From the NCBI GenBank assembly GCA_000091205.1, contig AP006498.2: DNA of 64,000 nt; one strand, 5' to 3'. The notes beneath the pieces are model-generated. The model worked only from the letters and a program-made list of their open reading frames with translations. It was not told where the DNA came from and searched no databases. Position numbers and translations under genes: made by a program. Positions 1,682 to 64,000 of the stretch are shown in pieces (within the stretch, counting starts at the first letter, position 1; each line of letters starts with the position of its first letter). This DNA comes from Cyanidioschyzon merolae (lineage: Eukaryota).

Positions 1682-1970
1682 GGTATACCGTCTAGTTTCT
1701 ATTCCACAGAAACTACAGAAAAGACTAGAGCGTGTCTCGACAGCAATGACGGCGCATCCGCGACGCCGGATACGAATGGACAAGGCTAGCTAAATCTGAT
1801 CAATACGAATAAAAGAGACAGCGATCGCGCCTCTAGCACGCAGGCAGTGACCTACGACCACATACACCACGCGAAACAACAACCTACGAGCTACAATTGC
1901 GCTAAAAGAACAGAAACTATCCAATAACCAGCAACTCTATAACAATTTCGTTTCATCTTCACGGCACGCG

Positions 1971-3310: not shown

Positions 3311-3607
3311 GCATATATCCTATAGGTAATTCGCCTACGATCTAAATGTTACATTCATTAGAGATTTCTGTCTCCTTCTCCACCCCGCAACGATGGTGAA
3401 CCAAAATTGAGTTGAAAGATTACAAGCGACGGCCGTTCCGTGGCCGCAGCTGCTGTGTCCGAATTTACCAAGATCGAGAGCCGTTACGCTTCTGTGCCTG
3501 GCCCTGAGCTCAAACAGCTACGTTTACGTACATACGTTGCAGTGGGTTATGTGAGCACAACTTTAGGCGTCTTACTTTTTCTCACTAGCGCACCAGGATT
3601 TTTCCTA

Positions 3608-11511: not shown

Positions 11512-11626
11512 ACGATGTGCGCAGAACACGAAATAACGAAATCGTCGCCGCAAAAATCGTGAGCGGCGAACGCGTTTTGCAACAGCGCCATTTGTATTTG
11601 CGGCCAGAGTCAATGGTACGAAAAAC

Positions 11627-11790
11627 GTTTCGCAATCATTGGATAAATGAATAGCCACCTAAAGACTCATCCCAGTCTTTCTCGACCGGCCACCCACAAC
11701 TGGATTCAACTTCTTTCCGAGCAATTCCGCCTTGAGAGGTTGCCCCGTAAAGTTGGCTCTCGTCAACTCTGAGGATCTCGTCTCGAGCAC
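11627..11790 (-). ncRNA. Candidate omega-RNA-like conserved 3' non-coding segment of Fanzor copy A
   Basis: On the minus strand: 'ggggcaacctctcaaggcggaa...ggccggtcgagaaagactgggatgagtctttaggtggctattcatttatcc aatgattgcgaaac'. The blocks 'ggggcaacctc', 'ccggtc.a..aag.ctggga.g.gtc' and 'gattgcgaaac' are conserved with 47974..48197, 56040..56150, 63870..63985, 33961..34065 and, more loosely, 44255..44310. Confidence 0.35.
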
Positions 11791-13889: not shown

Positions 13890-14149
13890 GTGAGGACCTG
13901 TACGGCGGGGGAAATATTAGCGGGAGAACGACGACATGCGCCCCTATGTCAACGTGTTCTGAACGTTTCGGCGATCCTTCCACTGGATCGATCGTTACTT
14001 TTCCGGATAGAAGAAACTCCATCGATGGGGTTCAAACACGGACACTTCGAAGGAATAAAAAAGCAACGTTAGCCCGATAGAATTGGCAAAAGCTCGAACA
14101 CAAATGGAATGGTATTTACCATTTCGTCCAAGGGAAGGAGGTCACCACA

Positions 14150-14700
14150 CGTCAGGAAAAAAGTTTCAATGATTCGAAAAAGTGGGCGCTGTTGTTTGAG
14201 CCTTCACTATGAGCGATACTGAGACCGCCAAACGAGTCCATCGCAGCTAGAACAGATGATGTCGGAGTTCTCTTTGAGTTCGACCCTGCATACAACAGGC
14301 TCCCTCTCCGCGAATACCCATGTACGCTCCGACGGTTCTGCCCGAGGGGAGTCTCATCGACTAAAAAATAAATCGACACACCTGTGCTTCTTACCTATCG
14401 CACGGTTTCAGGAAAGCTGTAGTCGCGATTCCTGTGGAAGATGGCGATGCCTGAAGCTGAACTTTTTTGCGACTGTATCTTAGTGTTTCCAAGACAATAT
14501 CAACAAGCTGCTGATAAACAGAGACGCCCGTGGCGACTAGTGTCGTCGCGTTTTGCTTTCCTTGAGGCGAGCAACGGGTCATTTTTATACGACTGACCGC
14601 AAACACGCTTTGACAATTCCAGGCTTTGGTGCGGAGCACACATACTTGTTTCTTTTAGTGTTCTTGAACGATCAGAGTATTGTGGTATGACTGACCCGAA
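14150..14700 (-). mobile_element. Tc1/mariner-like transposase relic (fragmentary)
   Basis: ORFs 14391..14639 and 14152..14379 (minus) read '...VLETLRYSRKKVQLQASPSSTGIATTAFLK' and '...VHGYSRRGSLLYAGSNSKRTPTSSVLAAMDSFGGLS'. These are homologous to the 2770..3306 relic. Confidence 0.4.
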
Positions 14701-17069: not shown

Positions 17070-17395
17070 CTATTGGGAGTTTTGATCAAAAAAATAGGTA
17101 GCCATGTGGACAGCCTGCAGACTTGTTTGCGGAACTCGGATGTTCAGCTGCGTGATGGAGTGCGTCAAGACGAAACACGCTAACCGAGCATTGCTCGAGT
17201 AAGTAGCTACACGCTCACGGATAGCTTGCTGCACCTTACCTTTTGGAAGATTGCCTCCGCGCATGTGTTTAGGTATCTAGCCTTGACAAGGCGTTCAGAC
17301 AGACAAATCCCCCGCTGATTGATCTCTTTCCTGCCCTTCCTCGTCCCCTTTTCGGGAGGACACCTCTCTTCATTGTCCATGGTTTTTTCCTCCTT
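17070..17395 (-). mobile_element. Solo 5' fragment of Fanzor family 1
   Basis: 'KEEKTMDNEER...' and 'KVQQAIRERVATYSSNARL' match the N-terminal region of copy A ('MKEQKREVRHQK...KVQEAIRNRVASYSSSVRN', 13419..13739). No downstream RuvC region is present. Confidence 0.3.
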
Positions 17396-31448: not shown

Positions 31449-32399
31449 ATGCACAGTGCGTTTAGCGACACGTTCGGCGATGCGGTAATCAGTACGTATT
31501 TTGGTGCTGCTGCGACAAGTACTCAAGCAGGACTCTCTTACCTACAGCAGGGCAGGTGCAAAACTGGATATTCATTTCGCAGCGTGTGATCTGTCTAAAG
31601 AAGATTGCAAAGTCTGTATGCAGTGAACAAGTACTTGCACAGAGGGCTGGAAACTAGCGAACTCAAAAAGCGTACTGTATTGGGTACAGAGCCGAGACGC
31701 GCGCTGACAACAAAAACAGCACGAGGCGCCTATTTTGCACGATCCGCGCTACGTACCTCTCCAGCGTAGCTGTGTTCGGTCTGGATTGAATCCTGGGCTT
31801 TCACGAACAGGTGTTTGCTGAGTGTCAGCAAAACAGGTGTCCCGGCAACGGCTGTATGGAGAGGTGTTTCCAGGGGGAGCTGCCCTCTCTGGGTCGAGAC
31901 GGATAGCAGACTGCACTGGCAGCAGACGATTCAAGGAAACCGCTGATAACCTGTGGAGCGCGGTTGTGGTCAAAAGGCGATGGGATTTTTAGGACAAGCA
32001 GTGCAAAATGCATCGGATGAATCCTATTCTAGTCTTTCAACGGAGTTTTGTTTGACCACCGCTGCGGTGTTGAGCTGGAGATCGAAATCACTATCCAATG
32101 TACTGTATGGATCGTTGATGAATTTCATGTAGGATATATGCTTTACTCAAGAGTACGGGGAGGATTGCATTTCAGTCTGGGTTCAGTTATAAAATAGTAC
32201 GCAGACTGTTGAGGAACACTGAAGGAAACAAGTATACGTGCTCCGCGCCAAAAACACGTTATCCTTAAACACGGATTGTGGTCAATGGTAGAGAACCGGT
32301 CCGTTGAACGCCCTAAGCAAAGCGTTTCCGACGATGGTAGTCGCCATGGACGTCTCTATTTCTCAACGGCACGTTCGTGTGATCGGAAAAAAACTGTGA

Positions 32400-32900
32400 T
32401 ACAGTCGTAAAAAAGTCCTAGTGCATGAACTAATATCTTGCACCGAAATCGCAGCGACAGAATTCCTCGCATCTTGCGATAGCTAAGAAGCACAGGGACG
32501 TCGATTTGTTTCTTCATTCGATGAGACTTGCTTCGGATGAAACCGTTGGAGCGTATATGGGTATTCGCGGAGCAGGGCGTCCGTTGTATGCACGGTCGAA
32601 CTCGAAGAGAACGATGGTATCATAACCTGTTCTAACTTTGATGGATACATTTGGCGGCCTCAATTTCGCTTGTAATGAAGGTTCGTATAACAGCAACAAC
32701 CACTTTTCCGAATCATAGAAGACATTTCCCTGTCGTCGGACGACGTCATTCTACTGGACGAAATAGTAATTCCCTACTCCATTTGCGTTCGAGCTTTTAC
32801 CGATTCTATTGGGCTAGAGGTGCTTTTCATTGCGCCGTACTCTCCGTGGGTCATCCCCATCGATCGATTGTTTGATATCGTGAGAAGTTATGATAGCTCC
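32400..32900 (+). mobile_element. Tc1/mariner-like relic fragment (transposase sense on +)
   Basis: The antisense ORF 32514..32699 reads 'LLYEPSLQAKLRPPNVSIKVRTGYDTIVLFEFDRAYN', homologous to 2756..2944 'LFHEPSLRENPRPPNISTAARTDDEIFLLEFDLIYN'. The 3' repeat segment follows at 33432..33767. Confidence 0.3.
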
Positions 32901-32983
32901 GCTGGGCGACTTGATGAATCATCAGCTCGCCTGATACGGGGGCACATGTCATCTTCTTCTGCAAGTCCTTCGGCTTCAGGGAA

Positions 32984-34065
32984 GGTCCTCACCTAAAGTC
33001 ATAAAAAATTGCGTTCATTGTCAAAAATAAAAATCCAAGGAATGCGATGGGGAGTGCACTTTAGAAGGTCGAGATAGAGAGCAGGCGGCGGAGCGCTTCG
33101 GCGATAGAAAAGCACAGAGAGCTGATTAAGCAGCAAATGGACAGAGGGCACGAGTTCGAGGACACCTTGCACTGGTAAGTTCCACCAGAGGCAATAAAAG
33201 CATGGAGTTCGTGAACGGAGAATTTAACGCCGCCATTAATGGCAGATGTGCGATGCTGGTGAAGAGACCCGAGGTGATTTTTTTCATATGACAAAACGTT
33301 TAGATTGATCATGGATCCCAGAATTCGGAAGAGATAATGGCTTTCAGGGAAGCGTCCATCATGAAGGACCCACCTTCAAGTTCCATCACTCATACGTCCT
33401 CTCGGATATACAGGTCGTTTCGTATGTTCTATCATGCGCCGAGTGCCTGGCGTGAACGCTCACCGTAGCGCCTATATACCGCTGAAGTAGATGCTGCACG
33501 GAGACAGAACGGGTTTGCCGTACCACTGAGGGCGTCGGCTCGAGGCGTGCTATATCCGACACGGAGCCGGACTACAAAATCATTCTGGGAGCCTGCAAAC
33601 TGTGCTGACAGACCTACTGCCTGCGGCAGCGCGATGCAATATACTAGGAGTCCACTGCGACCAGGGCGACGCCCAGATGCAGCTTTGCTGCGTCTACTCC
33701 CAGAATGAATTGCGTTCCAGACGAGCAGCTCAGGTTTCTTTAAAGAACCCACCACTGGAGGCAGCATGAAGCGCTAGCTAGCCCCGCAGACTCGTCCGGC
33801 TCGCGGGACCTTCCGCCTAGAGGGTAAATTTTCGAAGATACGGAAACTTTTCGCCATTTCAACGCTAACTATCAAGGTCGATAGAAACTGTTATCGATTT
33901 GCTAGTTAGCGGTTAGTTTCTGTTCTGTCACCCGAGGTGATGACGCAATACAGCTTTGTGAGACAGCCTCTCAGGCTCGAAGTATATTGGGATAAACTGA
34001 AACCGATAGCAGGCGACCGGTCAAAAAACCTGGGAGGGCCTGTGAGGGGGTATATATATGCACTC
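32984..34065 (+). mobile_element. Internally deleted Fanzor family-1 derivative (5' end joined to 3' end), split by an insertion of about 660 bp (33300..33960) that contains the Tc1-associated repeat
   Basis: Left end 'ggtcctcacctaaagtcataaaaaattgcgttcattgtcaaaaataaaaatcc' at 32984..33040, as in copy A. 33181..33290 encodes 'MEFVNGEFNAAINGRCAMLVKRPEV', a degenerate RuvC-III box. 33961..34065 is the conserved 3' tail 'agacagcctctcaggctcg...ccggtcaaaaaacctgggagggc'. Confidence 0.45.
33432..33767 (-). repeat. 3' repeat segment of the Tc1-like family, inserted within the Fanzor derivative
   Basis: 'GYSTPRADALSGTANPFCLRAAS' is homologous to 1971..2357 'GCTTPWADALCAMTKPFCLRA'. Confidence 0.35.
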
Positions 34066-34189
34066 TTTGGTGGCGAAACGTTTTCGCTCCACTGATCATC
34101 CACAGGTTGCTCTGCTCATGCGATTGCACGTGAGGATGCATCGTGGTTCCGCGTGATGCCCCACGCTACAGAGTCATCCGGGCGGGATG

Positions 34190-34500
34190 TGGGAGCTCGA
34201 AAGCACGTGATCGCTCCTGATTGGAAAGCATCTCATATATGCAGGGTACCAGTACGACCGGAAGTTTTCTTGTGCGTTCATAGCACTTCCAATTGGGAAG
34301 CATCTCATATATGCACGGTACCAGCAAGACAGGAAGTTTTCTTGTGCGTTCATAGCACTTCTGATTGCGAAGCATCTCATGTTTGCAGTGTACCAGTAAG
34401 ACAGGAAGTTTTCTTATGCTTCCATAGCACTCCTCATTGGGACGCATCTCACGTATGCACATGGTGCTCGAGCTGGCGGTTCCGAGCGATGCACCTCTTC
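34190..34500. repeat. Tandem repeat, 72-bp unit x about 4.3
   Basis: Unit starts at 34225, 34297, 34369 and 34441 ('gaagcatctcatatatgcacggtaccag.aagacaggaagttttcttgtgcgttcatagcacttc..attg.'). Seen in the ORF track as the reiterated peptide 'EASHICTVPARQEVFLCVHSTSDC'. Confidence 0.8.
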
Positions 34501-42107: not shown

Positions 42108-43149
42108 CAGCGAGTCAACAAGGGAGTTCAAGGCACCGTGCAGCAGCAAGTCAACCGTTTCAAGCGACGCGATGCGACTCGTGGTATCGATGATTCCTTC
42201 ATCGACGTCGTCGAGCGCTGGCGCTATATTCGTGGTGGCGGCGGCAGTGGCGGCGGCGGCTATTCGTCAACTGCCGTACGGCGTTACCGCCTCACAGGCG
42301 TGCCTCTCGAAGCTTGGACACAGAGGTAGCGGTGGTGTAGCGTGTGCGTCCGGGGAAACGGAAACGCTGACGCTTTGTGAACGCTGCTGCGGGATCGCAG
42401 TGACTGGGAGGGAGCACACGCCTCCGAGTCAGAGCACGTGCACGGGGTTGGCTAGCATAGTGCTGTGGAAGGCTGCTCGAGGCTGACAGCAGTCACCTGG
42501 GTACGAGCTCGCTGAAGAGAGTCTGAGGCAAGGCGCTTGCGGGAGTGGTGCGCTCTTGGCACAGCGATTTCACAACTGGGAAGCGAGTGCGGTAACGTCG
42601 GTGCGCGTGTTGCTAGGGCGGGGTGATGGCTGATGAGGAGGTACGTGGACCTGCGTGCCTGTGCTCCTGCTGTTTGGCATTGTGAGTGGGCGTGAACGTC
42701 GTATTTCGAGTTGACGGCACCCGGAGGTTCGCTGGATCGAGTCAGTATTCGTTAGCGAAGCAGTGCTGCGGGGTGTTGGCGTGCGATCGTGTGCGTTGTA
42801 GCAATAGCGCCGTTGTGCTAGTGACTTGCCGCGTGCATGAACCAAGCGTCCCTTCCTTGGCGGAGTACTCGCATGGTGGCCTTGGAGCTCGGAAGCGTCC
42901 CCAGAAGCAATGAAGTCCATGCTCTAAAGACTGGCAGTGTGCGCGTCTCTGGTGGCTTTTGGACAGAAGCACCGAACCTGGTCTACGCGCGAGAGAAATT
43001 AGAATGGAATACTGAACTGCATGCTCGATTCCTGCCTTGCGGATTCATTCCCGAACTTTTGTCATGTATACAGCTTCGATATCTGTAGTCCATGAAAGAG
43101 CTCTTTCGGATGCGAATGCGTCTTCGGACTCGCAATCGTCCATTTCGGA

Positions 43150-44310
43150 GTGACTCCATCGGCGCTGTGCTGCTCGAACTCAAAAAGTCACCGAAATCAA
43201 GACGATTCTCGACGCAGCAGAACGACGGTTCGTAAAATAACTGGTATCGTTATCCGACGCGCACGAACAAGCCTCCACTCTTGTCTGTTCCCTAGGTGTA
43301 GCATGCTCAGATCACGCAAGCTCCTAGTTTGCCGATCTTTCTGTTTTCAGGCAAATCGTAGAGACGGCAGTTGGCGCCGCAGGGATGGCGATCAGGAAAC
43401 TCAACGTTGTCACTTGACGGCTTGTTCACAAGATGGTGCCGAAAGCTCACTACACTTTTCATGTCTAATAATTGATTCCGTTCGAGCGACACATCCCGCT
43501 CTCTTCATGCCTATCGACGAGACTGAACTCGACAGCAGCCGCAGCAGCCGCAGCATGCTTCTGACGAGGTATGATCCCAGAGGCGTTCGTGTCTTCTGCT
43601 TCCATGGAAAAGCTTCTTGGACTCGGACGTCGATCATCGCAGCGACCGCTTCCATTTGCGAGCGGATCACCGGTTTGCACGAAGGGAGCGTAGACGGATC
43701 GAAATAGCTCGACTTGTCCCCGAGCCCGTATTTTCCTTCCGGTACTTGTTTCACCTTGGACAACACCGCGTTCCCCAAATCGTCTAAAGAATGGAGCAGC
43801 ATGCGCTTGTGCGTGCAAGGGACGGAGCACTCGCCGGCGTATTGTCCAGAACGGGCCCGTGATCGTTGGGTACGGCACCGGGTACGGAAACGGAGTAGCG
43901 CATGCTGGGCGATGCTTCTCCACTCGGAAAGGGCTTGTGCCAAGCGAGGCATTGTTCATTTATGCGCCAGGGGGCAGCGATCAGAGGAGGCATTGCGGGC
44001 GTATTGGAACACCTGGCCACAGCCAAGCGTCACCGCTGCGAATGGCGCACCCATTCTGTCTACGAAGACGGTGGAACTGGCAAGCGAAGCGCAGGTCGCA
44101 GCTTGAACCTGTTCGTCAAGTGCGCCAACAAGTACCGGAAGCGGGTGCATTGGGACGTCAAATCTGCCATCAACATCCTTCGGCAGCTGATAACGGAGCT
44201 GGAGCGACACGAGAGACCGGCATATTTCAAGCCGGATGCGCCATAGAGGAACAAAGAGCAGTCGTAGATACCGCGGGCAAAGGCTGGTGTCGTAGGTGAG
44301 AACTGGATGA
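43150..44310 (+). pseudogene. Degenerate family-2 TnpB/Fanzor-like element inside the left palindrome arm (mirrored copy at about 50241..51407, minus)
   Basis: Repeat X 43150..43707, then 'IVGYGTGYGNGV' (43859..), 'GVLEHLATAKRHRCEW' and 'VHWDVKSAINILRQ' (about 44163..44195, a degenerate NAAxNI RuvC-III box) across shifted frames. The tail 44255..44310 'gcagtcgtagataccgcgggcaaaggctggtgtcgtaggt' resembles the family-1 3' tail 'gcagtagtaggtgcccggtccatgaagactgggaggcgtccgtacgt'. Confidence 0.4.
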
Positions 44311-44637
44311 GACCCAGTATAATGATTACATATGCCCGAGTTTGTTAAGTGGAACGTTTCAATTTATTCTGAAATGGACGTAGGGCATCGATGTCCTTCA
44401 TCAAGCACCTTGTGCAGCACAGAAAATGAACCAGAATTGTTCGCTTGTGTGTCGAGGCGGCAAACTCCTCCGCACAATATCCCCGGCCGAAATGCTCTCA
44501 CACGGGCTCAGAGACATCTCTCTGGCATTGACATCCGATGCTCCAGGCTAGCTCGTACTAGGTGGCGCACTCTTCTAATACGAGACAGCAGACATGCACG
44601 TGTGTTGCACCGAGCGACAACGCGCCGGCGACGTCCT

Positions 44638-46014
44638 TCAGTAGCCCAGGTACCTCACTGGGGGTTTCTTCTTCCGACGTGTGCCGTCTGCGAAGCCGTC
44701 CCGACGATCATCGGTTTCATCGCTATCACCGCGTAGGTCGTGCACAAACCCCCGGAGGCTGGCCATCACTTTGTGGGCTTGGCGTCGCAGTTCAGCAGCG
44801 CGAAGCTGCTCGAATGCATCGTAGGTTCGCGAGCCGCTCGTTCCGACATCCCGCGGTCTACGCCGCAAGTGCTGAAACTTTTGCCATCCAGGAACCGCCT
44901 CATACCGGTGATCGCGCATAATTGGAAAGCAGTTGAAACCCTCCTCGCCGGGAAGTGGCTCCTCCGCAATAGACTCAATGGTGGGCAGTTTGATGCAGTG
45001 GTCATCCACCATCGTGGCAAAATCTACGCGTTGACTCGACAAATAATCGTCAAAGTCCAGGCTGTCAGGCGCAATGCGAAATACATTGGCAAGCTCGTCT
45101 GCGACATGCAGCCAGCCAATGTAGATGAGAAAAACAGAAAGCACGTAAATAATGTCCAGCCAGCGATAGTTTCCAATATCGATGCTGCTGGACGTTGCGC
45201 TCAATAAATTCAGATTTCCCGCGAGCAGTATGACACAAATCACGTAGATGCGCACTGTTGCGTTCACGAGCTGGCGGTACATCAGCGGAACTGGAACCCA
45301 CATGGGCACATATAAATAACCGAAATATCCGCGCACGAGCGCAAGCTGCTGCACAAGCTGAAGATGAACGAATTCCGTGATGCCGTAGCGGTGGTTCTGA
45401 TCACGCAGGCGAGAAAGCAAGTGCCCAGCCCACATGACTGGCATCGTCCACTGGGCTCTGTCTACATCATTCTCCAGCCGGTATCGCTCCTCAGGTGTGA
45501 TCAAGCCAATACGTTCCATGGCCTCAGTGGTGCGGTACGCATGATCACCGCCAAGAAAAACATCGCGAAGCACCATAGCGAACGGAATGCAGATCCACCG
45601 GACAATGAGTTGCTTCAACCGTGCAGCGCCGATAGGGTCGTTATCATCATACACGAAGGACGTCATCTCGAGAGCAATATTGTAGGCAGCGATTTGGCCA
45701 GTGCCACACATGACAACACGAACACTCCACCAACGGGAATAGATTGTGCTAGTATAAAACCCCAGCATAAAGGTAAGAATTGGCGAAAGGACACTGACAA
45801 GTGCTGCGAGAGTATTCAGGAAGGGTATCGGCCATTCTGCAACGTAGAGCTTGAGCGCTATCACGAGCACTGCGGCACCGATCCAGGAAAGAAGTTCAAA
45901 GAGCAACCGCTGGACCAATGAGCCGTACCAATGAAAGAAGACTCTAGTCCATGAAAGGGGAAATACATAGTCTTTCCCGAACGTGGCTATGGGATCCTTG
46001 TAGTAGATTGTCAT
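44638..46014 (-). CDS. Bestrophin-like (Bestrophin/RFP-TM/UPF0187 family) putative anion channel, 458 aa. Copy 1 of an identical pair
   Basis: 'LTFMLGFYTSTIYSRWWSVRV' matches the bestrophin 'F.LGFYV...RWW' motif. 'WLHVADELANVFRIAPDSLDFDDY' resembles the bestrophin 'NPFGEDDDDFE' box. Multiple TM helices. Genuine ATG (mirror of 48537). Confidence 0.7.
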   Translation of the reverse strand: MTIYYKDPIATFGKDYVFPLSWTRVFFHWYGSLVQRLLFELLSWIGAAVLVIALKLYVAEWPIPFLNTLAALVSVLSPILTFMLGFYTSTIYSRWWSVRVVMCGTGQIAAYNIALEMTSFVYDDNDPIGAARLKQLIVRWICIPFAMVLRDVFLGGDHAYRTTEAMERIGLITPEERYRLENDVDRAQWTMPVMWAGHLLSRLRDQNHRYGITEFVHLQLVQQLALVRGYFGYLYVPMWVPVPLMYRQLVNATVRIYVICVILLAGNLNLLSATSSSIDIGNYRWLDIIYVLSVFLIYIGWLHVADELANVFRIAPDSLDFDDYLSSQRVDFATMVDDHCIKLPTIESIAEEPLPGEEGFNCFPIMRDHRYEAVPGWQKFQHLRRRPRDVGTSGSRTYDAFEQLRAAELRRQAHKVMASLRGFVHDLRGDSDETDDRRDGFADGTRRKKKPPVRYLGY

Positions 46015-46353
46015 CTCTGGGAAACAAACGTGCCGCGTACCAGGTAAAGGCGTCGCTGGCCTGTGGAAACCTCTTCGGGCTCTTCAAATACGCACAAACA
46101 CCGCTTGGGTGCTTGCGCAACTCTGATTTGTGCTTTGGTCGTCGAACGGGGACTCGCTCGCTCTTGAACAGCAGCCGCACTCGAGCCGTGTGCACGTTTC
46201 CAACCTACGAAAACGCGAACTCCCGCTTCCAGCAGGTATCCTGATCTTGTTGCCTCTACGGTCAGGACGCGCAGTAAGCCTGGTTCACGTACGTACCGAC
46301 TATTTACCGGTGATAGTCGTCCGATCGCAGTGAGACCTACGGCGTCCCGTGTG

Positions 46354-47030
46354 TTTCGCAATCTGTCTGCAATAGCCGTTAGACAACCTGTTTATGGTTG
46401 CTTTGTGGCTCTGTGGCAAACACACACGCCGACACCGAACACTTTCCAAAAGTCGAACGACGCCAGCGCTGTACAGTACTGGCGAGAAGCCCGCCCTAGA
46501 CAAGAAGTCTCCAGCTGACGTACGGACGCCTCCCAGTCTTCATGGACCGGGCACCTACTACTGCTTCCAATTGTTTCTCATATAGTTCCACTTTGGGAGG
46601 TTGCCCCCACAAAATTCTCTCTTGTCAGCGCTGGAGGTCTGCTTTCCAGCACCGCACATCTCCTGATATTGATGGCGGCATTAAAGTCTCGGTTCACAAA
46701 CTCCATACGTTTCTTGCCATCACTGGTTGTACTCACTAGTGCGAGTAGCCCTCGAACTTTCGCCCTTGTTTCCATTTGCTCCTCCGTCAGCGGTCCGTAC
46801 TTTTCTATGTCTTCAGGGCTCCGCTGGCACTTTTCCATCCCGACCCTCTTAAGTACGCACCCCAGTTCATGGTGTGTATAGGACGTTCGGAACCCATCTA
46901 TCGGTATCGTAACAAAACGCTGTGCGCACTCCCTGTATGTTCTTGTCGACGGAGCTGGTACACATTCTTTTTGGGTCTTCCATCGCCCTGCTCCGTATGC
47001 CACTACGAGCCTCTGACGCTCGTCCTCCTT
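46354..47030 (-). mobile_element. Fanzor family-1 copy B: 3' half only (C-terminal about 150 aa plus conserved 3' tail), in the left palindrome arm
   Basis: ORF 46578..47123(-): '...KEDERQRLVVAYGAGRWKTQ...RFVTIPIDGFRTSYTHHELGC...SDGKKRMEFVNRDFNAAINIRRCAVLESRPPALTRENFVGATSQSGTI'. RuvC-III is intact (about 46651..46691). The RuvC-II position carries G ('IDGFRTS'). The tail 46354..46577 mirrors 47974..48197. Confidence 0.6.
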
Positions 47031-47039
47031 CATAATCCA

Positions 47040-48197
47040 TTTCCGTCTTCGATATTGTACGTGACGAAGCATGAAGATGAGAAGGAGGCGGGTCCTGCGA
47101 CGCAGAAAGTGCATGAGAACCACTTTGTCGTTGGCGCGGGCCCTGGGAACACGAATATCATGACCATCACAACACGCCGTTGTGGGGATGATGGCGTCGA
47201 CGGCAACTTACGTCAAAAAACACACGCGTGTTTTAAAGCGCTAAAGAACGAGATATTACCGAGAGTTCGGTGTGATGAATGCAAAGAAGAAAAGTGGAAC
47301 GTGGAGTGCTGGAGTGAAAAAGCACCTGGAAGCGATCAGCCAGGTGACGAGCCGAGAAGCGGACTTTAAAGCTTTTCGGAAATTCATGGAAGTTCGTGTT
47401 GCTCACTGGGATGCGCTGTGGGAGGGGCATACAAAGCCCCGGTGGGCTCGTCTGCGAATGAATCTATACTGTGGCAAGCAGCGCGCATTCGCGAACTTTT
47501 TCAACCAGCTGAGCGCCGTGAAGGAGGACGAGCGTCAGAGGCTCGTAGTGGCATACGGAGCAGGGCGATGGAAGACCCAAAAAGAATGTGTACCAGCTCC
47601 GTCGACAAGAACATACAGGGAGTGCGCACAGCGTTTTGTTACGATACCGATAGATGGGTTCCGAACGTCCTATACACACCATGAACTGGGGTGCGTACTT
47701 AAGAGGGTCGGGATGGAAAAGTGCCAGCGGAGCCCTGAAGACATAGAAAAGTACGGACCGCTGACGGAGGAGCAAATGGAAACAAGGGCGAAAGTTCGAG
47801 GGCTACTCGCACTAGTGAGTACAACCAGTGATGGCAAGAAACGTATGGAGTTTGTGAACCGAGACTTTAATGCCGCCATCAATATCAGGAGATGTGCGGT
47901 GCTGGAAAGCAGACCTCCAGCGCTGACAAGAGAGAATTTTGTGGGGGCAACCTCCCAAAGTGGAACTATATGAGAAACAATTGGAAGCAGTAGTAGGTGC
48001 CCGGTCCATGAAGACTGGGAGGCGTCCGTACGTCAGCTGGAGACTTCTTGTCTAGGGCGGGCTTCTCGCCAGTACTGTACAGCGCTGGCGTCGTTCGACT
48101 TTTGGAAAGTGTTCGGTGTCGGCGTGTGTGTTTGCCACAGAGCCACAAAGCAACCATAAACAGGTTGTCTAACGGCTATTGCAGACAGATTGCGAAA
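47040..48197 (+). mobile_element. Fanzor family-1 copy B-prime: 5'-truncated pseudogene (RuvC-I region through C-terminus plus 3' tail), spanning the palindrome spacer and right arm
   Basis: 46776-frame: '...HEDEKEAGPATQKVHENHFVVGAGPGNTNIMTITT', where RuvC-I Asp is replaced ('VGAGPG' versus 'VGLDTG' in copy A, about 47118..47145). It then shifts into the 47272..47973 frame: '...TWSAGVKKHLEAISQ...MEFVNRDFNAAINI...'. The region upstream of 47040 is the inverted arm, so the N-terminus is absent. The 3' tail ends with 'gattgcgaaac' at about 48187..48197. Confidence 0.6.
47974..48197 (+). ncRNA. Candidate omega-RNA-like conserved 3' segment of Fanzor B-prime (mirror copy at 46354..46577, minus)
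   Basis: Directly follows the stop at 47973: 'gtgggggcaacctcccaaagtggaac...agcagtagtaggtgcccggtccatgaagactgggaggcgtccgtacgt...ggctattgcagacagattgcgaaac'. It shares the conserved blocks of copy A and of copies at 56040..56150 and 63870..63985, and carries an extra insert of about 150 nt relative to A. Confidence 0.35.
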
Positions 48198-48536
48198 CAC
48201 ACGGGACGCCGTAGGTCTCACTGCGATCGGACGACTATCACCGGTAAATAGTCGGTACGTACGTGAACCAGGCTTACTGCGCGTCCTGACCGTAGAGGCA
48301 ACAAGATCAGGATACCTGCTGGAAGCGGGAGTTCGCGTTTTCGTAGGTTGGAAACGTGCACACGGCTCGAGTGCGGCTGCTGTTCAAGAGCGAGCGAGTC
48401 CCCGTTCGACGACCAAAGCACAAATCAGAGTTGCGCAAGCACCCAAGCGGTGTTTGTGCGTATTTGAAGAGCCCGAAGAGGTTTCCACAGGCCAGCGACG
48501 CCTTTACCTGGTACGCGGCACGTTTGTTTCCCAGAG

Positions 48537-49913
48537 ATGACAATCTACTACAAGGATCCCATAGCCACGTTCGGGAAAGACTATGTATTTCCCCTTTCAT
48601 GGACTAGAGTCTTCTTTCATTGGTACGGCTCATTGGTCCAGCGGTTGCTCTTTGAACTTCTTTCCTGGATCGGTGCCGCAGTGCTCGTGATAGCGCTCAA
48701 GCTCTACGTTGCAGAATGGCCGATACCCTTCCTGAATACTCTCGCAGCACTTGTCAGTGTCCTTTCGCCAATTCTTACCTTTATGCTGGGGTTTTATACT
48801 AGCACAATCTATTCCCGTTGGTGGAGTGTTCGTGTTGTCATGTGTGGCACTGGCCAAATCGCTGCCTACAATATTGCTCTCGAGATGACGTCCTTCGTGT
48901 ATGATGATAACGACCCTATCGGCGCTGCACGGTTGAAGCAACTCATTGTCCGGTGGATCTGCATTCCGTTCGCTATGGTGCTTCGCGATGTTTTTCTTGG
49001 CGGTGATCATGCGTACCGCACCACTGAGGCCATGGAACGTATTGGCTTGATCACACCTGAGGAGCGATACCGGCTGGAGAATGATGTAGACAGAGCCCAG
49101 TGGACGATGCCAGTCATGTGGGCTGGGCACTTGCTTTCTCGCCTGCGTGATCAGAACCACCGCTACGGCATCACGGAATTCGTTCATCTTCAGCTTGTGC
49201 AGCAGCTTGCGCTCGTGCGCGGATATTTCGGTTATTTATATGTGCCCATGTGGGTTCCAGTTCCGCTGATGTACCGCCAGCTCGTGAACGCAACAGTGCG
49301 CATCTACGTGATTTGTGTCATACTGCTCGCGGGAAATCTGAATTTATTGAGCGCAACGTCCAGCAGCATCGATATTGGAAACTATCGCTGGCTGGACATT
49401 ATTTACGTGCTTTCTGTTTTTCTCATCTACATTGGCTGGCTGCATGTCGCAGACGAGCTTGCCAATGTATTTCGCATTGCGCCTGACAGCCTGGACTTTG
49501 ACGATTATTTGTCGAGTCAACGCGTAGATTTTGCCACGATGGTGGATGACCACTGCATCAAACTGCCCACCATTGAGTCTATTGCGGAGGAGCCACTTCC
49601 CGGCGAGGAGGGTTTCAACTGCTTTCCAATTATGCGCGATCACCGGTATGAGGCGGTTCCTGGATGGCAAAAGTTTCAGCACTTGCGGCGTAGACCGCGG
49701 GATGTCGGAACGAGCGGCTCGCGAACCTACGATGCATTCGAGCAGCTTCGCGCTGCTGAACTGCGACGCCAAGCCCACAAAGTGATGGCCAGCCTCCGGG
49801 GGTTTGTGCACGACCTACGCGGTGATAGCGATGAAACCGATGATCGTCGGGACGGCTTCGCAGACGGCACACGTCGGAAGAAGAAACCCCCAGTGAGGTA
49901 CCTGGGCTACTGA
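48537..49913 (+). CDS. Bestrophin-like protein, copy 2 (identical to 44638..46014)
   Basis: Identical 458-aa translation. Genuine ATG at 48537. Confidence 0.7.
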   Translation: MTIYYKDPIATFGKDYVFPLSWTRVFFHWYGSLVQRLLFELLSWIGAAVLVIALKLYVAEWPIPFLNTLAALVSVLSPILTFMLGFYTSTIYSRWWSVRVVMCGTGQIAAYNIALEMTSFVYDDNDPIGAARLKQLIVRWICIPFAMVLRDVFLGGDHAYRTTEAMERIGLITPEERYRLENDVDRAQWTMPVMWAGHLLSRLRDQNHRYGITEFVHLQLVQQLALVRGYFGYLYVPMWVPVPLMYRQLVNATVRIYVICVILLAGNLNLLSATSSSIDIGNYRWLDIIYVLSVFLIYIGWLHVADELANVFRIAPDSLDFDDYLSSQRVDFATMVDDHCIKLPTIESIAEEPLPGEEGFNCFPIMRDHRYEAVPGWQKFQHLRRRPRDVGTSGSRTYDAFEQLRAAELRRQAHKVMASLRGFVHDLRGDSDETDDRRDGFADGTRRKKKPPVRYLGY

Positions 49914-52372
49914 AGGACGTCGCCGGCGCGTTGTCGCTCGGTGCAACACACGTGCATGTCTGCTGTCTCGTATTAGAAGAGTGCGCCACCTAGTACGAGC
50001 TAGCCTGGAGCATCGGATGTCAATGCCAGAGAGATGTCTCTGAGCCCGTGTGAGAGCATTTCGGCCGGGGATATTGTGCGGAGGAGTTTGCCGCCTCGAC
50101 ACACAAGCGAACAATTCTGGTTCATTTTCTGTGCTGCACAAGGTGCTTGATGAAGGACATCGATGCCCTACGTCCATTTCAGAATAAATTGAAACGTTCC
50201 ACTTAACAAACTCGGGCATATGTAATCATTATACTGGGTCTCATCCAGTTCTCACCTACGACACCAGCCTTTGCCCGCGGTATCTACGACTGCTCTTTGT
50301 TCCTCTATGGCGCATCCGGCTTGAAATATGCCGGTCTCTCGTGTCGCTCCAGCTCCGTTATCAGCTGCCGAAGGATGTTGATGGCAGATTTGACGTCCCA
50401 ATGCACCCGCTTCCGGTACTTGTTGGCGCACTTGACGAACAGGTTCAAGCTGCGACCTGCGCTTCGCTTGCCAGTTCCACCGTCTTCGTAGACAGAATGG
50501 GTGCGCCATTCGCAGCGGTGACGCTTGGCTGTGGCCAGGTGTTCCAATACGCCCGCAATGCCTCCTCTGATCGCTGCCCCCTGGCGCATAAATGAACAAT
50601 GCCTCGCTTGGCACAAGCCCTTTCCGAGTGGAGAAGCATCGCCCAGCATGCGCTACTCCGTTTCCGTACCCGGTGCCGTACCCAACGATCACGGGCCCGT
50701 TCTGGACAATACGCCGGCGAGTGCTCCGTCCCTTGCACGCACAAGCGCATGCTGCTCCATTCTTTAGACGATTTGGGGAACGCGGTGTTGTCCAAGGTGA
50801 AACAAGTACCGGAAGGAAAATACGGGCTCGGGGACAAGTCGAGCTATTTCGATCCGTCTACGCTCCCTTCGTGCAAACCGGTGATCCGCTCGCAAATGGA
50901 AGCGGTCGCTGCGATGATCGACGTCCGAGTCCAAGAAGCTTTTCCATGGAAGCAGAAGACACGAACGCCTCTGGGATCATACCTCGTCAGAAGCATGCTG
51001 CTGCTGCGGCTGCTGCGGCTGCTGTCGAGTTCAGTCTCGTCGATAGGCATGAAGAGAGCGGGATGTGTCGCTCGAACGGAATCAATTATTAGACATGAAA
51101 AGTGTAGTGAGCTTTCGGCACCATCTTGTGAACAAGCCGTCAAGTGACAACGTTGAGTTTCCTGATCGCCATCCCTGCGGCGCCAACTGCCGTCTCTACG
51201 ATTTGCCTGAAAACAGAAAGATCGGCAAACTAGGAGCTTGCGTGATCTGAGCATGCTACACCTAGGGAACAGACAAGAGTGGAGGCTTGTTCGTGCGCGT
51301 CGGATAACGATACCAGTTATTTTACGAACCGTCGTTCTGCTGCGTCGAGAATCGTCTTGATTTCGGTGACTTTTTGAGTTCGAGCAGCACAGCGCCGATG
51401 GAGTCACTCCGAAATGGACGATTGCGAGTCCGAAGACGCATTCGCATCCGAAAGAGCTCTTTCATGGACTACAGATATCGAAGCTGTATACATGACAAAA
51501 GTTCGGGAATGAATCCGCAAGGCAGGAATCGAGCATGCAGTTCAGTATTCCATTCTAATCTGATAGCCCCGTCGGCGACGAGGATCTCAGAGTCGGATTG
51601 CACCTGCACTGATTCCGGGGATCTTGGTGTGCATGATGGAAATCTTTGGAAAATGTTCTGCGAATGATGGAACACGGGAAGTGTTGGACGCTTCCACCGT
51701 GCGCCCAGCTCTTTCTGATGCCTCCGAAAATGGAATTTTCGGAGCGCTCTCGGACACTAGTCTTGTGTGCGGTGCTTTGCACTCGATGGACGCAAAGAGT
51801 ACCGAAGCGAATCCTCACGAAGTTACGGATTCGCGCTCATTCAAGCAATCCCGGAGACATACCATAGAGTTGACATCGACGTTGCGCTGCCTCGGACCTT
51901 ACCAGGGATTGGTCACAGCACAAACGTCGGCGTCGCTCATGCTGCAGCGCCGGCGCTCTAGGCTCACTGTGGGCCCCCCTATCAAGCACTTGGCCCCGGA
52001 GGATTGCACGAAGCGACGGTTATCTCCAAAGAAAAGCGCGCGTGGTTGTTGTTGGGGCTTGAAGATCTGTTGCCGCGGAATGGACGCTCTCTCTGATGCC
52101 GTCAACCCTCGCGCAGTCAAGGATTCCTTCGAGTGTGTAAACGAATCTACACACCCCTGTGGGAAATCGCTCGTGCGAGAGAAGATGTACTTTTAGGGAC
52201 AATAATGTATGTCTTGTACGTCCGTGCGCGTGGCCTCGACAGCAGCGCAGCACCTGCACCTTGCAGTCGTTTCGAGCGCGCAGCCAGTGCTTGTTGTAAA
52301 CGACCTAGTCTAGGGTTGCTGGGGCGGTCCTCGCGTCAGGCTGTCCGCCCGACACACCTTGCAATAGGCACC

Positions 52373-55139: not shown

Positions 55140-55567
55140 CAAAACAGGTATCACTGCAACCGTCTAGCGAATCGTCTCCGAGAAACCAGAAATTAACAGT
55201 GATTTAAGAATCGGAGATGCAACGAAGAAAAGTTACGCAACAATATTCACTGTACACAGTTGTCCAGGATCGTCTACAGTGCATGTGCATGCACGCGGTT
55301 CCGAGATGACGCCTCGGCACGCAGCAATGCATGGCGTTTCGGGTTGCCTGAGTGGCGGCGCAATCAGCATCGCGGCAAGCGCCCGCGATAGGCGCAGTAT
55401 GCCGAGAACTCTTTGCCCGCAGACAAACAACTAATCTCTATGTCGAACGGAGGGACTGTTCTTGAGCTAGTGGAACGTTGAAGCGTCTGAAGTAATACGC
55501 AACTATGATGGAATTGAGCAGCATTGTGAAGTGCATTGGAGGTGTTCGTTCAAGTTTTCTTGTCATA

Positions 55568-56150
55568 GTTTTTCACCTAAATTGTGTTCCACTCCTCCGG
55601 TGCGTGTCATCAAATGCGTGTTCGCGGTTTATAGCGGATTCGTTCGAAGTAGGTTCATTTCCAAAAATAAAAATCTAAGGATCAGGTATCGACATGCAAG
55701 GCGGGGATCCAGGAGGACCCTCATCACTGGCTGCCTGAGTAAAAAACGAAACAAATCCTCTTCTCGCCGATCATCGAGCGAAGAAGAGCAAGTGACCAGG
55801 AAGAAAAAGGCGAAGAAGATGACGATGAGAGATCGGCGAGAAAATGTATTTGGTCAACGGAACGATGACGTCCCTTTGGTGGCAAAGAGGGCTCGCGTTC
55901 TGACAACTATTTTAAAGGTGAGCTCAACCAGAGGCAATAAACGCATAGAGTTCGTGAACCGAGACTTCAACGCCGCCATCAATATCATGAGATGCACGGT
56001 GCTGGAGACGAGACCCGAGGAGCTGAGGCGATCCAAGTTTGTGAGGCAGCCTCTCAGGCTCGTTCTGTGCATGAATAAACCTAAATCGATAGCAGGGTCG
56101 CGGTCGAACAGGGCAGGGACGCGTCTACGGGTGGGTATTCACGCACCCTG
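55568..56150 (+). mobile_element. Internally deleted Fanzor family-1 derivative C (about 0.58 kb: left end plus last about 60 codons plus 3' tail)
   Basis: Left end 'tcacctaaa...catttccaaaaataaaaatctaagga' (55571..55670). 'RARVLTTILKVSSTRGNKRIEFVNRDFNAAINIMRCTVLETRPEELRRSKFV' at about 55900..56045 has an intact RuvC-III box. Tail 56040..56150 'gtgaggcagcctctcaggctcg...gcggtcgaacagggcagggacgcgtctacgg gtgggtattcac'. The 216-aa ORF-track ORF 55531..56181 is not a host gene. Confidence 0.5.
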
Positions 56151-58281
56151 CTTGCTCGTGGGACTTTGTTTCTTTCATTGACGATAACAGTGACGATAAT
56201 CACGGACAGAATATCCACCTGTGTGCACTTTGTAAAGCTCCTGAAACCTAGGCCACAGTCGAGTAACGAAGCTCATTGTCTACCGTTCAGGGTAGATCAA
56301 GAGACAGACTTCGGGGTCGGCGTGGACCCGGGAGCTGCAGGATGTCACGCCCGATTTTTAACCTCTGAATGAGGAGGCCGGCGCCAAAGACCTACTCGGA
56401 AGGAAGCTGACCCTGTTCAAGCTTTCCAGGGCAGGGGATTATCGAGATTCGGGCATAACGTTCGCCAGCAGGGATACCAGCAAGTGGAACGACGGCGTCC
56501 GGGCCCGACTCTCGACGCTCTGGACACCGTATCGAGCAGACGGGGGCATGCTTTGCACGCTTGATTCATAGATCATATGAGCCTCAAAACGTCTCCTGCG
56601 GGCGGTCTTTGGCAGCAGTACACACGGGCGCGCGGGGTCGGAAACCGATTCGGTTGAACGGAGGCAGCCATCGTGTATGCGCCAACTTGTCAGATGTGTT
56701 CGAACGAGAAATGATCGACACGTCGCGCTGTTTCGCGGAAGCCTAAGGCGCTGGACGTGGTTTAACGCGCATGAATGCGCTCCTACTCTTCGACCAGAGC
56801 GTGCAACGAGTGCAGGAACCGATCCTCAACGATACCCCAGCCCTGAGTTCGGGACGGCGTGCACGCATCCCGAGCACAGGTGCATGCTGAAACTGGTAGC
56901 AAAGAAGAGACGGAAATAAAGTTGGATGCTCGAGCTGGTGTACGGTAAGCTGACTGTGTGTCAGATGGCGAGCGAGTCGCAAGTGCGACGCGTGCTACAA
57001 TCTGAGTCCACCGCCATCCATGAGAGAAAGCAACTTCTGCACCGATATCTCAAAGCCTTGAAAAGCGTACGGAAATGTCTCGTGCCTCCGAAGAGTTCGG
57101 TGGCTTTGTGTGGCGCGAGCTTTCGGGAATTATTTCGTATCCTATCCATGCATTGTGCTGAAACACAGAAGAGTATTTATAAAAAATCAGGGCCAGGAGC
57201 GAGGGGGCGGCCTTCGTTTCTCGCCCGGAGCAAGGCTCTGGTATGGTACGATTCAGCTACCGAACGACATTGGTGCACCGTACACATACATCGTCAATGA
57301 TTTTCCTCGGCAACTGATACACCATTATTTGAGACGACGAATATAGAACAGAGTCAAATTGATGGATCAAAGCAGGTGAGCGGGGGCATAGACCTTGCGT
57401 TTCCGCAGACGGATTCCGGATGATGCCGCTTGTGTGATTTTTTCGTTGACAAGTCGCCCGCAGGGGACACGAACCTCCAAGTTCCCACAGAGAGGACACT
57501 TTGAGGCCAGTGCTGGACCGCACGGCCTGCAAGACCTGTGTTCGCTCCATACCCCTGTAGTATCTCCTATGGACGTGCTTTCCACGACTTATTCTGTCCA
57601 AACGAGCGTTTGCCCACAAAGATCTGGTCCATCAAAGTTGAGTTCAAGGCACAAGCGCAAGTAAAGCCAATTTTGGGCCCTGTACAATATGCAGGTGGCC
57701 TTCACAGCATACGCTTCGTTCCTCGTTTACGACGCGGCGAACGAGTGCTTCCGCGGAGGCGACCACGCACACAACCCCTGAAACTGAGCAGCTACAAACT
57801 GCATTAGTGGACCTGGAAGACCTGTTTCTCCTGCTTTGTATTCGTCTCGTCATCGAGCCCAGCGTATTCAGTAAACTTCCGTGCAAGTCACGGTTTACGT
57901 GCAGGTTTTCTTCGTAGACTCCGCCTTGTCCTGGAGAGTTTACGCTCGATTACGAGCAGCCTCGTAGGTAAACTTCGAAACAATTCGCCATTTACGTGCA
58001 GATGCCTATCCAGATGCTGCGACGTCCTGCTGAAATCACTCTCGTAGACGTGCAGTTTCGTGCAGGCCGCCCCTAGTTCTGTTCGAACTCGCGCGTCCAG
58101 CAGCGAGCCTCGTTGCTGAGCGCTGCGCTCGGCACCGAATGCCTCTGCGGCTTGCACATGCTCGCTCAGAAGCGTTCGTGTTGCACTGGGGGGTTCATCG
58201 CAGCGTACGCCAAGTCACTGTGACCAGATCATAACGTTTCGGCTTCCGCTACGCGGCTTATACGGTGAGTTCGTGCGCCGG

Positions 58282-62275: not shown

Positions 62276-63049
62276 GGACGCAGTTTGTGGTCCGGCGCAC
62301 AAGGCAAGCCGCCACGCGTCCGCGCAGGCAACAACGTGCTCACGGGGAATACTGGCGTGTCGGTGCCGAGCCTGCGCGCGGCACTAGCGCCCCAGTCCAA
62401 TATGTCCATAAGATCTACTTGATTCACTAGATGTCAAGTTAAGGACAGGTATGAGACTGCTCCCAGGGGCACCCATCCGGATGCTACCGCTGATTAAGCG
62501 ACGCGTTCCGGTGTTCACGGGTGCATGGCTCGTCGAGCGGAACCCCTTTTCCCAAGGTCAGCGAATGCACTGCACAGCGCTTGGCACTTGCGCCTCGAGA
62601 CAGTTAGGCAGTTATCGGAGCGCTTGAGGCAACTTGGGGATCGCCAGCGGGGGCCAGCGTGCCACGACTGAACTTGGTGCGGCCGGCTGACTCGCCTATC
62701 GCCTCCGCCCACTGCCGGGTTCGGCATGGAGCCGAGGATGCTCGACCTTTCGCACTGCGCGGGTTCGAGATTTGTTTTATTCGGGTATTTGAACTGAAAT
62801 TTATTCCAGACCAGCTGATTCCACTCGAATGCTTTTCTGCAGTGTATGGCAGGAGATCCAAATCACGATGCAACGTACCGTATAGATCGTAGACGAATTG
62901 CATGCAGGATACATGTATGACTGAACAGCGCAGAGAAGAATGCGTTCGTACTTCATGTCAGTCATACGATGGTACCGTGATGGTTGAGGAACGCTGAAAG
63001 ATCTAAGTAGACGCGCTTCGCGCCAAAATCCGATATTTTTACAGACTGT

Positions 63050-63250
63050 TTGCGATCTGTGGTAGAAAACGACACGTTGATCACTTTACAGAAAGCAAAA
63101 GCGATGATAATAGGCGTCACAGGCATCTCTGTTTCGCAACAGCATGTTCGTTTGGTCTTGAAAACAGTCGGATACTGTCGCAATAAAGTCCTAGTTCACA
63201 CACGGTATCCTGCACCGAAATCCCAGCTACTACAGCGTCCCTAGAACGTC
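63050..63250 (+). mobile_element. Tc1/mariner-like HTH fragment
   Basis: 'VENDTLITLQKAKAMIIGVTGISVSQQHVRLVLKTVGYCRNKV' is homologous to 2770..3306 'VENDMLITLEKSNRTMVATTGVSGTQQLVRVVLNTQGYSRKKV'. Confidence 0.3.
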
Positions 63251-63499
63251 GTGATCGGTATGAAGCAAAGGAACGTCGGTCTGTTTTTCCCGACTCTATC
63301 GGGGAGTAGAGCTGCTTTTGATTCCTCCATACTTTCCATGGTTCCTCCCCATCGATGGATACTTTTCTATTGTGAAACGTGGTGATCGCTATACTGGGCG
63401 AGGCGCTGAGGTGTTAAGCATACCGTTACACACCGGGCCACATGACATCGTTCTTCCGCAAGACCTTCTTCTTCCCCAGGGAGATGGGTGCTCACCTAG

Positions 63500-63985
63500 C
63501 CGCATAAACAAGAGTATTCATTTTCAAGAAAAAACTATCGAAAGGAAAGTTTTGGGAACGAAAATCGGGGATACCACAAGGCCGTCATCGCGGAGTTCGA
63601 CAGCGAAACGAAAAAATTCTCCTCTCGTCGATCATCGAGCGAGGAAGAGCAAGCGACGAAGGTGTCAATGATACGCGAGAAAAGGTGTTTCCCCGACGGG
63701 ACGACGACGATACTGTATTGGAACTGAGGCGCAACTTCGAGGACATGCTCGATTGCTGAGTTCCATCAGCGTCAATACACGGACGGAGTTCGTGAACCGA
63801 GCCCTTAACAGTGCCATCAATACCAGACGACATGCGGTGCTCCAGAAGAAACCTGAGGAGATGAAGGGATACAAGTTTGTCGCACAGCCTCACAGGCTCG
63901 AAATATGTAGGAATAAACAGATACCGACAGCAGGTGTCCGGTCAAAAGGGGCTGGGAGGCGTCTGCGCGTTGGGATTCATTTACC
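63500..63985 (+). mobile_element. Internally deleted Fanzor family-1 derivative D (degenerate), reaching the window edge
   Basis: Collinear with derivative C: 'cgaaaaaattctcctctcgtcgatcatcgagcgaggaagagcaagcgac', a degraded RuvC-III box 'EFVNRALNSAINTRR', and the tail 'tttgtcgcacagcctcacaggctcg...gtccggtcaaaaggggctgggaggcgtctgcgcgttgggattcatttaccc'. The last block matches copy A 'ggctattcatttatcc'. Confidence 0.45.
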
Positions 63986-64000
63986 CGAGCGAGCATCGAC

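Follow-up and report, generated by a model that had tools for sequence, protein, structure and literature searches.

A 64,000-nucleotide stretch of the Cyanidioschyzon merolae genome (contig AP006498.2; referred to here as the window) contains three short loci, C (55.6-56.2 kb), D (63.5-64.0 kb) and E (33.0-34.1 kb), which carry the end of a TnpB/Fanzor-like reading frame. They raise the question of whether such loci are miniature mobile elements, from which parent they derive and by what mechanism they were moved. A self-comparison of the window placed them in a repeat family built around the ORF end EFVNRDFNAAINI, together with copy A (11.6-13.8 kb, minus strand, nearly full length) and copy B (47.0-48.1 kb). 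Three host ORFs of the window are identical to proteins of C. merolae 10D, namely BAM81817.1 (CMP188C), BAM81819.1 and BAM81823.1/BAM81824.1.

Remnants of a published Fanzor1 family

Comparison with published sequences identifies the repeats as CMe-1A, a Fanzor1 (TnpB-like) family of C. merolae whose protein (CMe-1) and 3169-bp consensus are given in the supplementary files of Bao and Jurka (2013, Mob DNA 4:12; PMC3627910). CMe-1A was described as having about 150 copies, roughly 80% identical to the consensus and without terminal inverted repeats (TIRs); a target-site duplication (TSD) could not be determined and the class was left unknown (PMC3627910). The consensus lacks a transposase, and its first 635 bp are TE-N2_CMe (PMC3627910). 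The Fanzor1 ORF occupies positions 906-3110 of the 3169 bp and encodes the 734 aa of CMe-1. Identity of the window copies to the consensus is 73-88%. In a tblastn search with CMe-1, copy A matched residues 1-729 (66-71% identity), B 374-734, C 643-728, D 628-729 and E from residue 646 onwards. A conceptual protein of copy A found 172 homologues, all of them metagenome proteins.

The catalytic residues of the consensus are the D of GADPGNTN, the E of VDEFRTSYT and the RD of FVNRDFNAAINI. The RuvC-III 'NRD' is intact in copies C and B only; A has NHD, D has NRA and E has NGE. RuvC-I and RuvC-II are wholly missing from C, D and E, so that the set of catalytic motifs expected of a Fanzor1 is incomplete. 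These short elements are, as read from their sequence, Fanzor remnants rather than Fanzor genes. All window copies are dead, with stops and frameshifts, pairwise identities of 59-72% and not one intact gene. Sequence and profile searches of the PDB with the Fanzor fragments or the family alignment gave no match, and Pfam returned only a faint Cas12f1-like_TNB match. An AlphaFold2 model of the family protein P0007, built from a 20-sequence alignment, had a mean pLDDT of 31, which is too low for a fold assignment. The family proteins P0001, P0006 and P0007 contain tandem units of ~25 aa (…KHEEKKEA.PATQKVQDNDLVVD…) ahead of RuvC-I. The units sit just before the catalytic GADPGNTN motif and their number differs between family members.

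Copy A (11610-14866, minus strand) is the closest progenitor-like copy in the window. It is a near full-length composite, 81% identical to positions 869-3082 of CMe-1A, with a left end at 14866-14810, a transposase pseudogene of the DDE_3 type ending in a stop at 13888-13886, a Fanzor1 pseudogene reaching from the ATG at 13831 to about 11653 and interrupted by in-frame stops and frameshifts, and a right-end hairpin at 11637-11610. Copy B (47036-48090, plus strand) is a 5'-truncated Fanzor1 ORF end with a right end of the CMe-1A type and is 86-88% identical to consensus positions 2093-3145. A partial mirror of B at 47030-46461 (minus strand) is the product of a 4-kb inverted duplication (42998-47032 and 47519-51559), whose arms are 99.85% identical and separated by a 486-bp spacer. 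The duplication doubles a bestrophin-like gene, represented in NCBI by BAM81823.1 and BAM81824.1, which are identical. With an inner junction that cuts through copy B, the duplication could be either a palindrome of recent origin or a feature of the assembly.

At 56181-57360 (plus strand) and 15220-17243 (minus strand) lie relics of another, divergent Fanzor-like family. They show about 30% amino acid identity to CMe-1 and 35-40% to each other. The former directly abuts the right end of C, and the latter lies just upstream of composite A.

Two Fanzor deletions and their dispersed copies

In the first-pass annotation the three short loci were regarded as internally deleted, non-autonomous Fanzor-type derivatives, and this is borne out by their mutual similarity and by their mapping onto CMe-1A. 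Positions 55744-56141 of C correspond to 63606-63979 of D (69% identity, E about 1e-36). The ORF-end stubs of C and E are 82% identical over 104 nt (E about 2e-21), their tails match with E about 6e-10, and their A-rich leaders (55653-55681 in C, 33013-33041 in E) are 90% identical. In consensus coordinates, C consists of 787-967 plus 2833-3082, D of 869-969 plus 2833-3088 and E of 868-909 plus 2737-3077. All three keep the leader and the ORF start, the right terminus and the last 85-125 codons including RuvC-III, a longer stub than the about 60 codons originally given.

Copy C (55564-56181, plus strand; nhmmer match with E 1e-23) is a solo mini-element of 618 bp that carries no transposase. 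It comprises a left-end segment (55564-55640), whose boundary is common to the metagenome copy G1 (L004) introduced below, an ATG at 55694, a deletion junction at about 55860-55880, the ORF-end stub at 55879-56133 and a hairpin-like terminal right end at 56160-56181. The deleted Fanzor part of copy D starts at 63500 and has its junction at about 63700-63718. The right end of D lies 21 bp past the end of the window and was located in contig L017, at window-equivalent positions 64000-64021. In copy E an ATG microhomology marks the junction between the leader and the ORF end, at about 33042-33050, and the right end is at 34095. The apparent length of 1.08 kb for this part of E is due to the insertion of an unrelated 648-bp repeat (33282-33929, plus strand), which is a copy of TE-N2_CMe and 82% identical to positions 3-634 of the CMe-1A consensus, the part that equals TE-N2_CMe.

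A 12-bp direct repeat, ACCCGAGGTGAT, lies on either side of the inserted TE-N2_CMe, whose end at consensus position 1 has a T6 run (A6 on the opposite strand). The equivalent end of a second TE-N2_CMe (about 1905-2549) carries an A-rich run (aacaaaaagg). With these features TE-N2_CMe, which Bao and Jurka did not classify, looks like a retroposon or SINE. Some 125 bp beyond the right end of E, at 34220-34435, are three tandem 72-bp units (82-90% identical).

A metagenome scan with a pattern taken from the tail motif common to C, D and E returned 20 loci. Seven are the window loci themselves (98.7-99.6% identical), and all orthologous metagenome contigs (99.3-99.5% identical) carry C, D and E, with no polymorphic empty site among them. 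Two others (L005 and L020) fitted the pattern by chance only. The remaining 11 collapse into four further loci, one of which (L018) has two copies, which gives five further copies designated G1-G5. These are all short; the scan loci included no full-length copy with this tail type.

The short copies fall into two lineages. In the C/D lineage (C, D, G1, G2 and G5) the deletion spans CMe-1A positions about 1010/1070 to about 2830; G1, G2 and G5 resume at consensus 2819-2849, and all five copies have a 16-nt insertion in the N-terminal remnant that is specific to this lineage. In the E lineage (E, G3 and G4) the deletion runs from 906 to 2729, the start codon region being joined to consensus ~2729 at the ATG microhomology. 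The flanks differ at every short-copy locus, and for C, D, E and G1-G5 similarity ends right outside both the left and the right end. Since the same breakpoints occur in five and three copies with unrelated flanks, the short forms multiplied after the deletions. On this comparison each Fanzor-deleted form has given rise to dispersed copies, at least five of the C/D type and at least three of the E type, and the earlier view of the short forms as mobile derivatives is upheld. Both lineages are new and are absent from the original description of CMe-1A.

An upstream DDE transposase and the ends of the unit

The left end of the short elements had been placed at the conserved sequence ggtcctcacctaa, which is found at 32984-32996 in E and 13898-13886 (minus strand) in A and has the counterpart ggtgctcacctag at 63487-63499 in D. 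Homology between the copies extends about 1 kb to the left of this sequence, 13849-14805 corresponding to 33033-32072 and 14364-14837 to 63288-62814. ggtcctcacctaa and GGTCCTCACCTAA are in fact the last residues and the stop codon (TAA or TAG) of an upstream DDE_3 transposase pseudogene. The motif noticed in copy A (13898-13845, minus strand) is therefore real, but what it marks in A, D and E is the transposase stop and not the end of an element. For annotation the gain is that the stop codon of a transposase pseudogene is no longer mistaken for a transposon terminus.

The upstream transposase region is also present in G2-G4 and in copy F (2559-3422, minus strand), which consists of a left end and the DDE_3 pseudogene and has no Fanzor part left; the second TE-N2_CMe copy (1905-2539) interrupts the pseudogene of F near its 3' end. 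A majority consensus of seven copies, with two frame changes, yielded a protein of roughly 300 aa (~299 codons). It matched Pfam DDE_3 (PF13358) with 79.6 bits (cut-off 28.6) and E 2.8e-22 and showed an N-terminal Tc3-type HTH (HTH_Tnp_Tc3_2) and the motifs VDETSFG, LLLDN and PPYSPWFNPID. These features identify the upstream gene as a DDE transposase of the IS630/Tc1-mariner type.

Copies D and E are thus composites. D (62785-64000, plus strand, 1.2 kb) has its left end at 62785-62852, followed by the DDE_3 pseudogene up to the TAG at 63497-63499. E (32030-34095, plus strand) measures 2.07 kb, or 1.4 kb without the TE-N2 insertion, with the left end at 32030-32095 and the DDE_3 pseudogene at about 32099-32996 (TAA at 32994-32996). 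The first-pass annotation of all three loci as elements of ~0.5 kb remains valid for C, a solo mini-element, but not for D and E, whose homology begins ~1 kb further left. The proposed boundaries of D and E do not coincide with the ends of the repeat, and their shared segments are parts of something larger; C, G1 and G5 escape this revision.

Where, then, is the true left end? Positions 55564-55640 of C and 787-860 of CMe-1A align, in all composite copies, with the ~75 bp ahead of the transposase ORF. An nhmmer profile of the left ends of the solo copies matched G3 (E 7e-5), G2 (1e-3), F (at 3422; 0.07), A (at 14867; 0.07), D (62787-62852; 0.08) and E (at 32026; 1.3). The matches were in the right orientation at the left boundaries of the composites, with essentially none elsewhere. 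The left-end homology of the window composites is individually weak (E 0.07-1.3); it convinces only because it recurs at exactly this place. The region upstream in the solo copies (C, L001, L002) had been considered unrelated to the composites, a view abandoned when alignment and nhmmer indicated the same left end, split by the cassette. Likewise 'ttttcacctaa' (TTTTTCACCTAA) in C was dismissed as a counterpart of ggtcctcacctaa: the resemblance is a coincidence, since the sequence aligns with the true left end, upstream of the transposase in the composites. The transposase cassette is precisely what is missing from the solo forms (C, G1, G5 and the published consensus), and the order of the unit, as these alignments place it, is left end (~75 bp), transposase cassette, 50-bp leader or spacer, Fanzor ORF and right end. 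Among short copies only C, G1 and G5 are solo mini-elements, and the full-length form represented by the CMe-1A consensus is also without the cassette. Because the C/D deletion is found in copies that have the cassette and in copies that do not, an extra recombination step is needed, which was not observed.

The left boundaries are not uniform, for copies of the CMe-1A type, and perhaps C, D and G3, reach further upstream. A possible weak inverted match, seen by eye only, pairs CMe-1A 700-725 (CGCCGTTGAAGGGAAACGCG) with 3145-3169 (reverse complement of ...CGTTTTTCTTTTGAAAGGCG); its window equivalents are at about 55470-55495 (C) and 48065-48090 (B). If this match is real, the left end of CMe-1A begins ~85 bp further upstream than the boundary adopted here.

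At the right end, eight copies agree as far as a hairpin-like terminal motif (roughly ...CGCGAAACGTTTTCGCGCCAYTGA), past which they diverge. This puts the ends at 56181 in C, 34095 in E and 11610 in A, besides that of D outside the window; the ends first assigned to C and E fall about 30 bp short. A hairpin is present at the right end only, not at both ends. The earlier statement that the copies have no TIRs agrees with our analysis, as neither a repeat search nor Smith-Waterman comparison of left with reverse-complemented right ends (seven C. merolae copies against shuffles, p 0.05-0.94) gave a significant match. In E a 27-nt inverted match of 70% (31934-31960 and 34085-34111) was judged to be chance, because it is absent from every other copy. 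No TSD could be defined in the C. merolae copies. Only in G1 is a 9-bp imperfect inverted repeat bordered by TA on both sides; the other copies are too decayed for a TA duplication to be recognised. No conserved motif or TAM was seen outside the left end among the flanks, and no TnpA-like Y1 or serine recombinase was associated with the unit. Since loss of recognisable TIRs is expected where both arms have diverged by ~25%, the lack of TIRs here is no argument for an IS200/605-like mechanism.

Origin of the short copies and related systems

Relatives of the decayed composites are found in metagenomes. For the reconstructed transposase, 161 full-length homologues were found, about 295 aa long and 40-52% identical. 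In all three that were looked up (L023, L024 and L026) the transposase is followed on the same strand by an ORF of 587-669 aa, in units of 3.1-3.4 kb, and these downstream ORFs are CMe-1 homologues (blastp E 4e-150, 4e-86 and 2e-77, respectively). Two of the three intact units have TIRs, of 32 nt in L023 (107-138 and 3053-3084) and 34 nt in L024 (3-36 and 3349-3382), while a TIR search of L026 and of its giant-virus-like copy L025 found none. The unit of L025 (5001-7922) resides in a giant-virus-like contig beside genes for GIY-YIG, IF4E and NAD-ligase proteins. The intact two-gene units may be living relatives of the fossil copies in C. merolae. Fanzor1 within Mariner elements with TA duplications has been described before (Bao and Jurka 2013, PMC3627910).

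The explanation that we favour, with a probability of about 65%, is that C, D and E derive by deletion from a two-gene cut-and-paste transposon, encoding a DDE_3 transposase and Fanzor1, that belonged to the CMe-1A family or was its parent; they are now non-autonomous fossils. The DDE transposase inside the unit and the TIRs of two intact relatives argue for cut-and-paste rather than an IS200/605-like mechanism, contrary to what the missing TIRs had first suggested. The parent would have had a ~75-bp left end, a DDE_3 gene of ~299 codons, a 50-bp spacer, the 734-aa Fanzor1 (CMe-1) and a right end with the terminal hairpin. Two internal deletions took out most of the Fanzor ORF and founded the C/D and E lineages. 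The DDE transposase would have moved the copies by acting on both ends, supplied in cis for copies of the D and E type while the gene was intact and in trans for those of the C type. Abortive gap repair or template switching after excision could have produced the deletions and the mixed combinations, and the ends would persist since copies lacking them cannot move. As the C. merolae copies have no TIRs and no definable TSD, we infer their transposase-mediated movement from the relatives only.

CMe-1A itself is probably a transposase-less offshoot of the two-gene transposon of the DDE_3 (Tc1/mariner-type) plus Fanzor1 kind, and the DDE_3 link likely classifies this family, which its describers left unclassified. 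That lineages without the nuclease and with the transposase still multiplied fits a role of Fanzor/TnpB that is accessory, not essential, to transposition. The short loci are ordinary relics of a known Fanzor1 family and do not constitute a new kind of system.

Fanzor guide RNAs (fRNAs) are known to map to the interval bounded by the ORF end and the right end (PMC10530073), and under the favoured explanation too the 250-350 bp retained at the 3' end may carry one that overlaps the ORF end. Alternatively, the units might be TIR-less IS200/605-like or Fanzor-type elements whose mobilisation or homing relies on a guide-RNA module in the tail, with the short copies as solo guide-RNA carriers served in trans by Fanzor protein from full-length copies. 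It fits this explanation, which we nevertheless consider unlikely, that TIRs are undetectable in the C. merolae copies and that at least 250-350 bp of the 3' end, where fRNAs lie (PMC10530073), escaped both independent deletions. However, two independent deletion events are all that it rests on, and they cannot sustain the original proposal that an RNA module is required in cis. Moreover, because the ORF stops at 3110 of 3169, the conserved tail mostly encodes the last about 45 residues (...GQPLKVELYEKKLEAVVGGRSKKTGRRLHV...), a peptide still recognisable in C, D and E. The right-terminus hairpin does recur with different stem sequences, for example in D and G2 (read by eye), and the 3' 200 nt of the CMe-1A consensus fold somewhat better than shuffles (z = -2.8), but the antisense strand scores better still (z = -3.8). 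The last 200 nt of individual copies gave minimum free energy z-scores of -1.8 to +0.7 against dinucleotide shuffles, which are not significant. RNAalifold on eight tails gave -9.4 kcal/mol with no compensatory pairs and no covariation, and an Rfam search of 55400-56400 found no match. The tail called RNA-like in the first-pass annotation is mostly coding sequence. A DDE transposase in the unit, two intact relatives with TIRs and no Y1 or serine recombinase seen also speak against this explanation. It is very doubtful that the Fanzor-deleted copies acted as stand-alone guide-RNA units recruiting a full-length CMe-1A Fanzor1 to cut their own empty sites; if they did, they would be non-autonomous elements maintained by RNA-guided homing in a eukaryote.

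It might also be supposed that the short copies never moved as such, each being a separate full-length insertion that decayed in place, with deletion hot spots accounting for the similar breakpoints. The E-type junction does lie at a 3-bp ATG microhomology, and the copies are very old (59-72% identity), so that the lineage signal of the stubs is saturated; E pairs best with G2 and not with G3. Against this, the 906 to 2729 junction is found in three copies and that of ~1010/1070 to 2830 in five, which also have the 16-nt N-terminal insertion specific to their lineage. Recurrence three and five times over at a 3-bp microhomology is improbable, and decay in place appears quite unlikely. Segmental duplication of a larger chromosomal block without transposition is hardly tenable: the window does hold the 4-kb inverted duplication, in which part of element B is repeated, but that real duplication is 99.85% identical whereas the copies are ~30-40% diverged, and for C, D, E and G1-G5 no similarity is left in the sequence that directly adjoins either end.

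As deletion derivatives of a two-gene transposon, the short copies can be set beside several known systems. They resemble TnpB-only and PATE-type derivatives of IS200/IS605 elements in their TIR-less appearance and in the retention of the nuclease-proximal right end, the expected place of a guide RNA. Those elements, however, are recognised by a Y1 TnpA (a serine enzyme in IS607), sub-terminal hairpins at both ends and insertion next to a fixed TAM; in C. merolae there is neither such a TnpA nor a defined TAM, the unit has a DDE transposase and it is the nuclease gene itself that has been deleted. Copy C resembles MITEs and other internally deleted forms of cut-and-paste transposons (Stowaway, Tourist and Ds-type elements), as little but its two ends and some non-functional remnants is left and its deletion is shared by the several copies of one lineage. 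Being short (<0.8 kb), non-coding, multi-copy and uniform in structure applies to C (618 bp), G1 and G5 alone; D and E are not miniature, since they still carry the transposase pseudogene. The C. merolae short copies differ from MITEs in having no demonstrable TIRs or TSDs and in being few (eight known), and no MITEs are reported for C. merolae in the P-MITE survey (PMC3964958).

With CMe-1A as published (PMC3627910) the copies share organism and family as well as the lack of TIRs and of a TSD. The difference lies in a sub-lineage (A, D, E, F and G2-G4) in which the DDE_3 pseudogene stands between the left end and the Fanzor leader. In this respect the composites resemble Mariner/Tc1 elements carrying Fanzor1 (PUl-1 and PGv-1, PMC3627910; Fanzor1c, Jiang et al. 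2023, PMC10530073). While the C. merolae copies are without detectable TIRs or TA duplications and every gene in them is a pseudogene, the gene order is the same in both: Fanzor1 comes after a DDE transposase gene, and one strand encodes the two. The Mariner/Tc1 plus Fanzor1 units are about 3.2-3.6 kb long, and the same order is found in the fetched units L023, L024 and L026.
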